Below, piece after piece: positions 1 through 3,000 of a stretch of 25,433 nucleotides of DNA. The position numbers were made by a program. The stretch's first letter is position 1; each line of letters starts with the position of its first letter. Source of the stretch: Planctomycetota bacterium (GTDB lineage Bacteria; Planctomycetota; UBA8108; UBA1146); assembly GCA_036338595.1 (NCBI GenBank), contig JAYZBV010000085.1:1-25433 (forward strand), given 5' to 3'.

Positions 1-3000
1 CCGCACCCCCTCATGATCGTCAAGTTGTGGTCCGGGCGCTAGGCACTCTCGGAGAGAGAAGCCACCAGACAGCCCTTCGAGACGCTGTAGAGCGGATCTG
101 CAGCCTGACGGATCTCCTTGACCTCGATGGGGAACTGGATCTTTTCGAACTCCTGCTGGAAGACCTCGATGAAGCCTCCGATCATGCTGGTTCCACCAGA
201 ACAGACGATGCTCACCGGCTCGGGGAACTTCGGCATCGAGGAGGAGCACTCGAAACGCTCCTTGATGTTCTTGAGAGTGTAGGCAATCAGGTTGCGGTAG
301 TAGATCTCCACCGCTTCTTCCTCACGCCCCTGAGGGTTGGCGAGGTCGATGCCCTTCTCCTTCATGCCACAGGCGCGGCTGGAACTGATTCCGAGCACAC
401 CAGCAACATTGCGATCGATCCAGTCTCCACCACGGGTGGTCGAGAAGGAAAGTGCAGGAATGGACTTGTAGGCGACGCAGACGTTGAACATTCCACCGCC
501 GCAAGAGATACCGATGCCGGTGAAGTCGTCCTCTGCGAGCTCGGAAAAGACCACTGCATGGCCCTCGACGAGCGGCTTGGGATCGTATCCGAGTCCCTTG
601 ATGAGGCCTCCGAAGACACCTTGGTGGTAGACAACATTGAGATCGGCGTCGATCGGCTCTGCAGGTACAGAGTAATAGCACACCTCGCCAGGCTGCTGTG
701 GCTGACCCAGCAGGGTCTCGAGCAGCATCTTTTCGATGGGCAGCGCATCCGACTCATCAGGGCTGATCATTCCATCTTTCATCGGTCGACGCGTGTTGCG
801 ATTGAAGATGTTGGCGAGTTCAAACGCCGGATCTCCGACAACGACCATCCGATTATTGACCACAACATACTGAACTCCGAGACGAGTCAGCATATTTCGC
901 GTGTAGTCATCACAATCGATGTCGATGAACGCGTTTCGCTGGATCTTGAGGTTCACATTTCCTGCATTGTCCTGATTGGAGGATACAAGATTTGCTGTTC
1001 CCACATCGAGACCGCGACCGAGCGCGACTCCCGTGTTCACGACACCAGCGGCACTCGCTGCAGCCTGGACCGCAGATTCGGCTGCTATCGATTCACCACC
1101 GTCCATCGACGGATAGTTCACCGCATTGAGGGCCTCTGCTTCCTCAACACCGAATGCAGGCTCATTACTCTCGCCAGCACTGGCCTTGGGACCATTGTCC
1201 TCAAAATTCTTACGGGCGAAGTCTTCGTAATCTCCCATGCCCCTTACTCCGTTTCCTTCTGGAGGCCTCGTAACTTGGCCAGACTGGCCTCGACGCCTCC
1301 CGCTTTCGCGTTCTTTACCTCGACCTTGTCGAGATTGTTTTCGATGCTTTCTCCCGACTCCTTGGAAAAGAGCGCCACGAGCGCCTCTTCCGACGGGACA
1401 TCCTTTGTCTTCCTTGGTCCTCCCCCTTGCGCCGAATTTCCGACGCATTGAGCGAGGTTATCGATACTCTGCTTGATGCCTTCGATGTCATCTCCGGATG
1501 TTGGCTTTGCCCCGGCTCCGGCATCTTCAACTGCAGCCTTGACGACGGATCGGAGTTGATCCGTATCGATGGCGGGTGCCACGGGCGCCGGGCATGAGCG
1601 CGCCTCATGCAATTGCTCCTCCAGGTCCACTGCCTGGTCACGAAGCTGCTGGATGCGCTGCTCGTATTGCTGTTGTTGCTCGGCCTGTTGGCTTTTTCGA
1701 TCCTTCACCAGGCGCGAGAACTCGCTGCGTGCCTCTTCTCTGAGTTGATCCTGATCTACCTCGGGGAGTTCACTGAGTCGCTGGGCGACCACTTTTTCCA
1801 CCGCTTCATCGATCAAGCTCAGCACCGTGGAACGATCCAGCACCTTTACGGTCCTGAGTCCCCTACGGGCCAACTCATCTACAGATACAGTGTTGGCACG
1901 TTTTTGAAGTGCGTCTGGCACATCGAAGGTCTGACTCATCGGTCAACCGTTCTGCTGGTGTGCATCGGTGATTTCCGCTGGAATCTCACTGTCGATGCAC
2001 TGGCACCGATCTTCTGATCGGCGCGACCACGAAGGCCCTTACTCGGGGCCAATAAGACTAGCATCGGGGTGCAAAGTGCGGCAAACCGGGGATTGACCGT
2101 GACGGCAGGAAACCGTCTCAGATGGGCGTGGGATCGATCCTGGGGCAGATCCTAGATCTCGGCGTCGATCAACTTCTGGGCATACAGACGAATCCTGGAT
2201 TCGATCTCCCTGCGGTCTCTCGTCGAGAGTTTCGAACCATATGCAGAGAGCAGTTCGAGCAGCGTATTCCTGGCTCCATCATAATCCCCGAGTGCCACGT
2301 GGCACTGCTGAAGATCCCAGTACTGGGTTGGATTCTGATAGGAGATCGGACTCGATTGAAGGTGCCGCTTCATGTCCCGGATCGACAACCGAAACCACCG
2401 CTTCGATCCCGCCTTTGCAGTGGCGCGACGCTCCTTCAAATCGACAGGTACATCGAGGTCTTCCTCTTCCAGCGGCTTGCATTCCTCATCTGCCAGCGCA
2501 TAGAGATAATGGTATCCGGAGGCGATCCGTTTCCTCAGCCTGAATCGCTCCAGGCGGGGTTGAGTCGAATTCGGTGCCAACGTGACCGCTTCATCGAGCA
2601 GCAAGACCGCTTCCTCGTACTTGATGATCCCTTGCAAGATGCTGTTCGGATCTTCCTCATCGAACTCTTCCATCACTTCACGAATGATACGATCAGCCTG
2701 AGTTCGGTTGCGTGTGATCGTCTGCGCAGCCTCCACAGCGTCGTCATCATCTCGAACACCATTAGTTGGATTGCATCCGGAAAGTAGCAGTGCGATGGCG
2801 AGACCCATCGCAACAAGACCTGTGGCAATTGGTGTAAGGCTCCGGTCAGGCATCATGGATTCCTCTGCATCAAACGAAACGGGCGCGGGGACTAACCGTA
2901 CAGTCTAGTGCCAAGGCAGCAGATGGGAAGAAAGATGGTGAAGAAGTTCGCTACGTTCCATGGCTATCTCCGTGACGTCATTCCTCAGGTTCTTGAGGAA

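Follow-up and report, generated by a model that had tools for sequence, protein, structure and literature searches.

The 399-residue actin-like protein P0001, encoded at one end of a contig from a Planctomycetota bacterium, is best explained as a cytomotive, filament-forming actin-like ATPase that works with a dedicated coiled-coil adaptor encoded directly upstream. We assign this reading a probability of roughly 60%. The window, i.e. the whole stretch of DNA that was analysed, comprises 25,433 nucleotides (contig JAYZBV010000085.1). P0001 is a genuine, full-length member of the Pfam Volactin family in a bacterium without detectable FtsZ. Sequence and structure prediction show that it has an actin fold with intact nucleotide-binding motifs, that its gene shares an operon with a partner gene, that this pair is conserved and that the two are fused in some loci; polymerisation is expected by analogy with volactin of Haloferax volcanii and, probably, with Mad28.

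According to this reading, P0001 and its partner, P0002, would form a two-part machine made from one transcription unit. The partner probably dimerises through its long helix. A short, amphipathic tail at its C-terminus (ESNL...GV..sLakLrgL) would dock on the actin, while its conserved N-terminal domain would hold a putative cargo or site. Growth and shrinkage of the filament could then position or move the cargo, as in ParM/ParR, MamK/MamJ, or Mad28 with coiled-coil Mad proteins.

Actin fold and nucleotide-binding site

Despite a stop codon only 38 nt from the contig end, which had been a source of concern in the genome-wide survey's note, the reading frame of the actin is complete from ATG to TAG (Table 1). 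The end-to-end match to the Pfam Volactin profile (PF25216, gathering cut-off 35 bits) reported in that note was reproduced with 292.4 bits and E = 6.8e-87, covering residues 75-393 and profile positions 3-320 of 321. The same is true for the 42% identity to H. volcanii volactin (137 of 327 residues, E = 1e-98; P0385, named "disk-shape morphogenesis protein volactin" at NCBI).

The AlphaFold2 model of P0001 has a mean pLDDT of 87.8, and its top Foldseek matches are MamK (5ljv, TM 0.74 on the target), MreB and BeeR; EutJ is also among the matches. The nucleotide-binding motifs D78-x-G80-T81, E225, S245-x-G247-x-G249, G348-G349 and G389 are all in place, and across 125 aligned family members each residue of the nucleotide site is either invariant or conserved to at least 90%. 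At phosphate 2, where other actins have an aspartate, P0001 has a serine (S245), and so does the whole Volactin family. P0001 hence combines both marks of PF25216 membership, a full-length HMM match and an actin fold with conserved phosphate-1, connect-1, phosphate-2 (with serine), adenosine and connect-2 motifs. The actin core is 69-96% identical across the best 120 relatives, nearly all of which are Planctomycetota, and this points to strong constraint. The N-terminal tail contains a short helix at residues 4-15 (MGDYEDFARKNFE) and a second conserved patch (AFGVEEAEALNAVNYP). The rest is disordered, with a pLDDT below 50 at residues 19-65. Both patches are preserved in the close marine relatives (loci L006-L023), and the linker is variable.

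Table 1. Features of the actin-partner locus, in window coordinates
Feature	Position	Strand	Basis
Gene for 399-aa actin-like protein (P0001), Pfam Volactin family	39..1238	-	ORF and translation, HMM, AlphaFold2 model
Actin-fold core, residues 73-399	42..1022	-	pLDDT mostly >90 from residue 71; Foldseek; family alignment
N-terminal tail of P0001, residues 1-72	1023..1238	-	Alignment of close marine relatives; pLDDT
Gene junction: partner TAA, 5 nt, actin ATG	1239..1249	-	Direct sequence reading
Gene for 231-aa coiled-coil partner (P0002), putative adaptor	1244..1939	-	ORF, iterated HMM, alignments
Partner N-terminal conserved domain, residues 1-56, then long helix 60-115	1772..1939	-	Alignment of 35 partners; model
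Partner C-terminal tail module, residues 178-231	1247..1408	-	Alignments, HMM, complex prediction
Intergenic stretch beyond actin stop, with 5' arm of G+C-rich terminator-like hairpin at its end	1..38	-	Contig-end sequences

The partner gene and its surroundings

The actin is the second gene of a two-gene unit, with the partner gene 5 nt upstream. The junction lies within a purine-rich GGAGTAAGGGG stretch, which is a probable ribosome-binding site. No Pfam or NCBIfam family was matched by P0002, its N-terminal domain included. An alignment of 35 partners defines this domain by the invariant residues L23, G27, V31, V33 and V47, and the model has a pLDDT of 73-96 across residues 20-110. Besides the N-terminal domain, the tail module is the most conserved region of the partner. 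Its sequence reads ...EALVALF...ENNL..VEVKNAKAGGVEASLAKLRGLQKETE, where N202, L220 and L223 are invariant and E200 is at least 90% conserved in the alignments. When the 43,010 six-frame ORFs of the genome were searched with an HMM of the tail, P0002 was the sole confident match (E = 1e-17; next 0.04).

Beyond the actin gene, the sequence at the window end is ...GAGGGGGTGCGG, with the C-run/T-run side at the start of C101, another contig of this genome. Here the assembly broke, in the 5' arm of a terminator-like hairpin located 3' of the actin gene. This hairpin is intact in a 96%-identical relative (L006; -45.2 kcal/mol, z -6.3), and in the window's clade a hairpin terminator closes the unit and the next gene encodes a membrane-anchored MA-clan zinc peptidase. 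A promoter and terminator scan of window positions 1-3000 gave no hits above shuffled expectation. Of the 17 other window ORFs with at least 150 aa that were compared with Pfam, 15 matched housekeeping families and two matched none; magnetosome genes were not among them.

Short RNA-library contigs with 90-99% identity, from four libraries of four studies, cover parts of both genes, and one of them bridges the junction. The matching runs have small shares (0.05-0.08 of the sampled words), are available as contigs only, are silent on transcript ends and expression level, and have gaps (e.g. 701-840) that are uninformative. These contigs give a weak hint that both genes are expressed, with DNA carry-over or RNA from relatives as a possible source.

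Conservation of the gene pair and proposed docking of the tail

The pairing scan included 83 loci, 81 bacterial and two haloarchaeal. Using an iterated HMM, the partner was found upstream of the actin and co-oriented with it in 73 of the 81 bacterial loci, while the haloarchaeal pair had no partner match. In four further loci (L038, L042, L043 and L044), the N-terminal domain and the coiled coil of the partner precede the actin core in one fused protein (E = 1e-21 to 1e-25 with the partner HMM). The tail motif is absent from these fusions, as would be expected if the tail serves to tether. Among the remaining four bacterial loci, two have no upstream DNA and one has too little of it.

Complex prediction with residues 73-399 of the actin and 170-231 of the partner gave ipSAE values of 0.40, 0.30 and 0.40, with 0.00 in all three controls; a value of 0.40 lies in the band where, by the tool's own scale, predictions fail more often than they succeed if the pairing had no good prior odds, and no interface was returned. 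The runs share at least 95% of their contacts, with a partner pLDDT of at least 58. This amounts to weak support for docking of the partner tail on the actin core. The tail motif of a huge-phage ORF, described below, points the same way.

Relation to haloarchaeal volactin and distribution in Planctomycetota

The genome-wide survey's note regarded P0001 as a true bacterial orthologue of haloarchaeal volactin which, together with MreB and the MamK-like actins, would make up a cytoskeleton of actins only, giving these FtsZ-less cells their shape or dividing them. The phylogenetic analysis does not support the orthology. Three trees were calculated (FastTree with 149 rows, IQ-TREE with 65 and 66 rows) and rooted with the MreB and MamK-like proteins of the genome itself. 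In all three, H. volcanii volactin falls inside a haloarchaeal clade (support 99-100), separate from a planctomycete clade (support 90-97), and CPR, phage and many unnamed lineages lie between the two. Forcing haloarchaeal and planctomycete proteins together, a group chosen after seeing the tree, cost 117 log-likelihood units (p-AU 5e-5). In view of the separate clades and the AU rejection, P0001 is a family member and not a specific orthologue of haloarchaeal volactin; it belongs to a Planctomycetota-specific subfamily of the broad PF25216 family.

To our knowledge, Planctomycetota have no FtsZ. In accordance with the note, the window's genome gave no match to Tubulin (PF00091) in a search that was positive in 13 of 14 control genomes; as the genome is 88.3% complete (7.2% contaminated), the absence of FtsZ is unproven. 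Bactofilin was likewise not matched in this genome. The MreB and the two MamK/salactin-like actins listed in the note are present, the former with 467 bits, the latter with 79 and 67 bits on MreB_Mbl and with 25.1 (just under the cut-off of 27.1) and 58.8 bits on Salactin. Two PilM genes and an Hsp70-type frame also belong to the wider actin fold superfamily in this genome.

In a sample of 401 Planctomycetota species genomes spread evenly over the phylum, the Volactin family is found above the Pfam cut-off in 149 (173 at E ≤ 1e-3). This share clearly exceeds the 12% that the note gave as a floor. The family occurs in every one of the 11 genomes sampled from the taxonomic family of the window, and other whole families have none in the sample (e.g. 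0/5, 0/5 and 0/8). With so patchy a spread, a Volactin-family actin cannot have taken the place of FtsZ throughout the phylum.

This distribution also weighs on the wider idea of an actin-only cytoskeleton. The common Pfam family, the 42% identity to H. volcanii volactin and the occurrence in 11 of 11 genomes of the window's family speak for it, but the separation of the clades, the rejected union and the restriction to 149 of 401 species, with several families devoid of the gene, speak against it. Similarly, a genome without tubulin or bactofilin match would suit such a cytoskeleton, yet at 88% completeness the lack of FtsZ is not established. In Planctopirus limnophila, passages of PMC6952346 report no phenotype upon deletion of mreB, although division is still halted by A22, an actin-site drug, so that another target must exist. 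Still, a dedicated adaptor suits cargo handling better than wall-guided shape control, and nothing obvious in bacteria corresponds to the archaeal phenotype, the timing of the rod-to-disk change. Taken together, we consider this explanation unlikely.

The preferred reading, an actin filament with its own adaptor, bears on the cell organisation and division of Planctomycetota, where FtsZ is absent and MreB is dispensable in one tested species (passages of PMC6952346). A conserved actin with its own, sometimes fused, adaptor in more than one third of the sampled species is a candidate part of planctomycete internal organisation. The family of P0001 also offers a bacterial entry point to actins of which only the haloarchaeal ones and, probably, Mad28 of magnetotactic bacteria have been studied so far. 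Its value is tempered by the fact that NCBI already applies the name "volactin" to a planctomycete protein (P0301). This, and the occurrence of the family's signature motifs in Mad28, detract from the novelty claimed in the note; on the other hand, our literature search found no paper describing bacterial volactin homologues or a planctomycete actin-adaptor module.

Comparison with known actin systems

In ParM/ParR, an actin works with a small dimeric adaptor that has a docking tail, ParR docking by a short terminal peptide, and in parMR the adaptor gene lies downstream of the actin gene. A comparable role in DNA segregation would require the N-terminal domain of the partner to bind DNA, with the filament pushing or pulling chromosomes or other replicons apart. 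An actin plus a small adaptor, probably dimeric and with a putative docking tail, is the layout of P0001 and P0002 too, but here the adaptor gene is located upstream of the actin, and the partner has no match to a DNA-binding family. An N-terminal extension in one planctomycete paralogue group does pass the Pfam HTH_ParB cut-off in L039 (23.9 vs 22.6 bits), though this applies to only one of the two extended proteins scanned. All five plasmid-collection records with a volactin-family gene are haloarchaeal megaplasmids or chromids, and among the 72,556 records there is no bacterial plasmid with the family; P0001 itself is encoded among chromosomal housekeeping genes. Salactin, another haloarchaeal actin, is described in passages of PMC10869688 as aiding DNA partitioning. 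Window positions 1-3000, however, have no iterated repeats or centromere-like repeat array near the operon, only chance two-copy repeats inside coding sequence. We thus regard a ParM-type function as distinctly improbable.

ParM/ParR and MamK/MamJ each pair an actin-like filament with a small adaptor of its own, both encoded in one operon, as proposed for P0001 and P0002, and MamK has the nearest solved fold. Unlike in these systems, the locus is chromosomal and no centromere-like repeats were found, and P0001 is related to their actins by fold only, not by sequence. A phmmer search of P0001 against PDB sequences returned no matches at E ≤ 0.01, and the NCBIfam MamK model scored 20.5 bits, under its cut-off of 400. 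MreB shares the actin fold and forms the second-best group of structural matches, but Pfam MreB_Mbl does not match P0001 at E ≤ 0.1, and the genome's own MreB, a separate protein with 467 bits, is only about 25% identical in the core alignment. The FtsA domain model reached 19.2 bits, under its cut-off of 31.8.

The closest characterised relative is volactin (VolA, HVO_2015) of H. volcanii, which belongs to the same Pfam family end to end and has the same set of motifs, including the phosphate-2 serine. According to passages of PMC10869688, it forms dynamic filaments whose tips contact the membrane; its function, timing the change from rods to disks, is known from archaea alone. In both lineages a co-oriented gene lies directly upstream of the actin, but the haloarchaeal neighbour is a DUF7139 membrane protein with four transmembrane segments (124 bits), whereas the planctomycete one is a soluble coiled-coil protein. 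Archaeal volactin also lacks the N-terminal tail, which gives P0001 72 extra residues.

Mad28, the second actin-like protein of deep-branching magnetotactic bacteria, has SxGxG instead of DxGxG at phosphate-2 and no proline in connect-1, as stated in excerpts of PMC10653835. The motifs S245-C-G247-G-G249 and E225-G of P0001, at least 90% conserved in the family, fit this published description, which is what they were compared with. Mad28 works with coiled-coil proteins (excerpts of PMC12748827); in contrast to its setting, there are no magnetosome genes in the window of P0001. From the motifs, Mad28 probably belongs to the same family as P0001. Our literature search found no paper naming both Mad28 and volactin.

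Kinases, Hsp70 and PilM share the actin fold and are not known to form cytoskeletal filaments. That P0001 is likewise a non-polymerising ATPase (a regulator or chaperone-like enzyme) with a merely co-transcribed neighbour, as the exchange of the phosphate-2 aspartate for serine and EutJ among the Foldseek matches might suggest, is very improbable, given that its top structural matches (MamK filament, MreB and BeeR) all form filaments, that fusion to a long coiled coil suits a cytoskeletal role, that the founding member of the family is filamentous in vivo (passages of PMC10869688), and that Mad28, also with serine, polymerised in vitro (excerpts of PMC10653835).

A tentative common tether

In bacteria, haloarchaea and huge phages alike, actins of the Volactin family might be tethered by one kind of short tail motif on a protein encoded directly upstream, an idea that we put forward tentatively and with more doubt than conviction. 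The proposed common motif is G-V/I-x-x-s-L-x-K/R-L-K/R-x-L-R/Q. Its carrier would be the coiled-coil adaptor in Planctomycetota, sometimes fused to the actin, and the DUF7139 membrane protein in haloarchaea, where it would anchor the tips of volactin filaments at the membrane. Judging by synteny (DUF7139, volactin and next, on the other strand, a CPxCG zinc finger), this haloarchaeal neighbour is probably HVO_2016, which, like VolA, is more abundant in disk-shaped H. volcanii cells according to passages of the volactin paper (PMC10869688).

The same motif closes a small ORF that lies just upstream of the volactin-type gene in a huge-phage locus (GVSDAMGALKAVRKK; E = 0.013, 789 ORFs). With the bacterial tail HMM, the haloarchaeal upstream proteins were not significant (E = 0.46 for L088 and 3.3 for L086, 789 ORFs). 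An hhalign comparison of 35 bacterial partners with three archaeal neighbours paired exactly GGVEASLAKLRGLQKET with ESVDAAVNGLRGLRGGE, also without significance (E = 0.21, probability 0.3%).

Viewed by eye, the likeness of these two stretches, bacterial and haloarchaeal, is suggestive but not significant.

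Gene, family match and predicted fold

On the best-supported picture, the gene encodes a strongly conserved actin that probably forms filaments and has an adaptor of its own, to which it is fused in some genomes; in the window's clade, adaptor and actin are best read as being followed by a membrane peptidase. The actin, P0001, matches the Pfam Volactin model (PF25216) from end to end over residues 75-393 (292.4 bits, E 6.8e-87). No other Pfam or NCBIfam family exceeded its threshold (FtsA 19 bits; NCBIfam MamK 20.5 bits, cut-off 400), and phmmer returned no solved structure at E ≤ 0.01. 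The protein named 'disk-shape morphogenesis protein volactin [Haloferax volcanii]' by NCBI (P0385) is identical to P0001 at 137 of 327 positions (E 1e-98), which is exactly the 42% given in the genome-wide survey's note; the finding reported there is real and its numbers are right. A longer frame of 469 codons was rejected as the actin start, as it overlaps the upstream gene and is not used in relatives. The conserved MGD(Y/F) is the common protein start in relatives and lies at the same place as in P0001.

An AlphaFold2 model built on 125 family members reached a mean pLDDT of 87.8 and a pTM of 0.82, with values mostly above 90 in the core from residue 73 onward; the modelled N-terminus has a short helix (residues 4-15) and a disordered stretch (19-65). 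The best solved Foldseek matches were the MamK filament (5ljv, TM 0.74 on target), MreB and BeeR. G348 and G389 are invariant in the family alignment, and D78, G80, T81, E225, S245, G247, G249 and G349 are conserved to at least 90%. The actin nucleotide-binding motifs are therefore present in P0001 with the sole exception of phosphate 2, which is S-x-G-x-G and not D-x-G-x-G throughout the Volactin family.

Features of the actin locus in the window and on contig C101 of the same genome (G000)
Feature	Position	Strand	Remarks
Actin gene P0001	39-1238	minus	intact, 399 codons
Partner gene P0002	1244-1939	minus	231 codons; TAA stop 5 nt before actin ATG
234-aa ORF	2152-2856	minus	just upstream of operon; lipoprotein-like start (…LLLSGC…), no Pfam family
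Peptidase_MA_2 orthologue	C101 13787-14782	minus	89% identical; starts 38 nt from C101 end
Terminator-like hairpin, split by assembly	window 1-38 and G000:C101:14783-14820		contig ends are the two hairpin halves

Relationship to haloarchaeal volactin

Trees were computed with FastTree (149 rows) and IQ-TREE (65 and 66 rows) and rooted on the MreB and MamK-like proteins of the window's own genome. The row set excludes any sequence with over 70% identity to a retained one and any that spans under 250 core columns; for the two IQ-TREE trees, the unnamed representatives were further thinned to every third. The Volactin family forms a single clade (support 99). Within it, one clade (99-100), nested in a small group of 8-9 rows, unites H. 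volcanii volactin with three further haloarchaeal proteins, and the ten named planctomycete rows form a separate one (90-97), with CPR, phage and many unnamed lineages in between. Forcing a 16-row planctomycete clade together with three haloarchaeal rows cost 117 log-likelihood units (p-AU 5e-5), a weaker test than the value implies because the group was chosen after the tree had been seen. On these sequence comparisons, P0001 is a homologue within the same Pfam family and not the specific counterpart of H. volcanii volactin. The term 'orthologue' used in the survey's note goes beyond this evidence, and so does its statement that the protein shapes or divides the cell.

Distribution of the family

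A phmmer search of 1.84 billion representatives at 50% identity yielded 1182 clusters at E ≤ 1e-3, 381 of them at E ≤ 1e-30. In a word-index search, 2350 proteins scored at E ≤ 1e-3; the best 120 of these all carry PF25216 and are 69-96% identical, and those with a name belong to Planctomycetota. Of 401 Planctomycetota species genomes sampled evenly across the phylum, 149 passed the Pfam cut-off, including 11/11 from the window's own family and none from several others. Volactin-family genes were also found in a Minisyncoccales (CPR) MAG, in five haloarchaeal megaplasmid or chromid records and in two uncultured huge-phage records, L089 (LR745208.1, 485 kb) and L090 (LR756511.1, 595 kb), whose actins are 40.5% and 31.4% identical to P0001, respectively. 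At least one planctomycete protein (P0301) already bears the NCBI name 'disk-shape morphogenesis protein volactin'.

Several representatives of 680-790 aa (P0123, P0124, P0125, P0167, P0168, P0174 etc.) matched the query in two stretches. Some appear to be tandem double actins; others, with about 300 residues between the two halves of a single core, seem to hold a large insertion. Two very acidic paralogues on one 22.8-kb contig (P0154 and P0156; pI 4.2-4.5, 63% mutual identity) fall beside the planctomycete clade and not with haloarchaea, and may stem from a halophilic bacterium.

A coiled-coil partner encoded upstream

P0002 matches no family of Pfam or NCBIfam. With an HMM built iteratively from upstream ORFs, a co-oriented partner was detected in 73 of the 83 loci scanned (73/81 bacterial, 0/2 haloarchaeal). 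Four of the eight bacterial loci without a hit (L038, L042, L043, L044) encode fusions: a single frame of 643-750 residues runs from the N-terminal domain and coiled coil of the partner through a proline-rich linker into the actin core (partner HMM E 1e-21 to 1e-25). L066 and L080 are almost without upstream DNA and L048 has too little, while in L081 the iterated HMM found no trace of a partner upstream of the actin. Four of the fusion genomes also carry an unfused second copy with a separate partner (L051, L085, L036).

The partner consists of a conserved N-terminal domain (L23, G27, V31, V33 and V47 invariant), a coiled coil of highly variable length and a C-terminal module, ...EALVALF...ESNL..VEVK..AGGV..sLaKLrgL, with N202, L220 and L223 invariant. 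An HMM of this tail, run against the genome's 43,010 six-frame ORFs, matched P0002 alone with confidence (E 1e-17; next 0.04). The fused forms lack the tail motif, which fits a role of the tail as a tether to the actin. Complex predictions of actin residues 73-399 with partner residues 170-231 gave 0.40, 0.30 and 0.40, with all three controls at 0.00; contact agreement was at least 95% and partner pLDDT at least 58, and no interface was given. Docking of the tail on the actin is thus predicted with weak support; at this level, a passing prediction is wrong more often than right if the pairing was not already likely.

In a separate paralogue group (L039:5512-7383; also L036, L041 and L048), the planctomycete actin carries an N-terminal extension of about 160 aa. 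That of L039 passes the Pfam HTH_ParB cut-off (23.9 vs 22.6 bits), a hint that it may bind DNA; the Pfam scan gave no HTH_ParB match for that of L036.

Organization of the locus

The junction of the two genes is purine-rich (GGAGTAAGGGGCATG) and resembles a ribosome-binding site. Only 38 nt of the window lie beyond the actin stop. In L006, a relative with 96% identity, a G+C-rich hairpin of 16 bp with a T-run (-45.2 kcal/mol, z -6.3) lies after the stop, and next comes a gene for a 332-aa HExxH protein with a Peptidase_MA_2 match (46 bits) and a C-terminal hydrophobic stretch. Since the ends of C85, the window's contig, and C101 are halves of this hairpin, the two contigs are neighbours with the three genes in L006 order, and the Peptidase_MA_2 gene is the next gene after the actin in the window's genome. 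Of the 73 bacterial loci with at least 1200 nt downstream, 30 have this peptidase gene after the actin, all of them within the window's own clade (core identity at least 66%). The 234-aa ORF recurs in 20 related loci.

The record of L006 (QNYK01000064.1), the closest relative by protein identity and with the same gene order, is titled 'Bacillota bacterium'. All other phylum-labelled loci are Planctomycetota, and the title of this MAG is probably a labelling error.

Pieces of 151-382 nt that match parts of both genes at 90-99% identity occur in four RNA-library runs, each from a different study; the runs are marine and vent metatranscriptomes stored as contigs. One piece (1203-1389) spans the gene junction with more than 31 nt on each side. 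These contigs may come from close relatives and are no proof of transcription.

Haloarchaeal and phage loci

In Halogeometricum, Haloarcula and Natrinema (L086, L087, L088), a co-oriented gene of about 300 codons precedes the volactin gene. Its product is a membrane protein of the DUF7139 family (124 bits) that has an acidic linker and a segment, VD..V.GLR.L.GG, resembling the bacterial partner tail, although not significantly (HMM E 0.46 and 3.3, hhalign E 0.21). In Natrinema, a small CPxCG zinc-finger gene follows volactin on the opposite strand. This conserved order (the last gene in Natrinema) mirrors HVO_2016, HVO_2015 (VolA) and HVO_2014 of H. volcanii. In the tables of the volactin paper, HVO_2014 appears as a CPxCG zinc-finger protein and HVO_2016 as a conserved hypothetical, and a supplementary note groups HVO_2016 with VolA as commoner in disk-shaped cells (PMC10869688). 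By synteny, HVO_2016 is probably a DUF7139 protein. The small ORF (5328-5954) that directly precedes the actin gene in phage record L089 has the terminal sequence GVSDAMGALKAVRKK, a match to the tail motif with E 0.013 among 789 ORFs.

Other actins and related literature

The window's genome (2.9 Mb, 114 contigs, 88.3% complete, 7.2% contaminated) has one Volactin-family gene. The MreB and two MamK/salactin-like actins listed by the survey were all recovered, the true MreB at 467 bits, together with further members of the wider superfamily, namely two genes for PilM and one Hsp70-type frame; no bactofilin match was found. The survey's claim that Tubulin/FtsZ is lacking agrees with our search, which gave no match here and was positive in 13 of the 14 genomes used as controls. 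As 12% of the marker genes are missing, it is likely, not proven, that this genome lacks FtsZ.

Among the matches listed, literature using 'volactin' concerns haloarchaea, reviews or unrelated work. A word search of the accessible text and supplements of PMC10869688 revealed neither a phylogeny nor bacterial homologues, and the accessible parts of the salactin paper and of an actin-evolution review do not mention bacterial relatives. The word is likewise absent from the passages of the Mad28 papers searched, and we found no paper using both names. As described in the sections available, Mad28 has a Ser in phosphate 2, has lost the Pro in connect 1 and forms filaments in vitro (PMC10653835). 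Both motif features are family-wide in Volactin, and we think, from this comparison by description, that Mad28 belongs to the family. A preprint, seen in part, describes 'saltatorellin' of Saltatorellota as MamK-like. According to the passages available of PMC6952346, A22 still stops division in a Planctopirus limnophila mreB deletion strain; the drug therefore has another target, for which a second actin-like ATPase such as one of the Volactin family is a candidate, if P. limnophila carries one.
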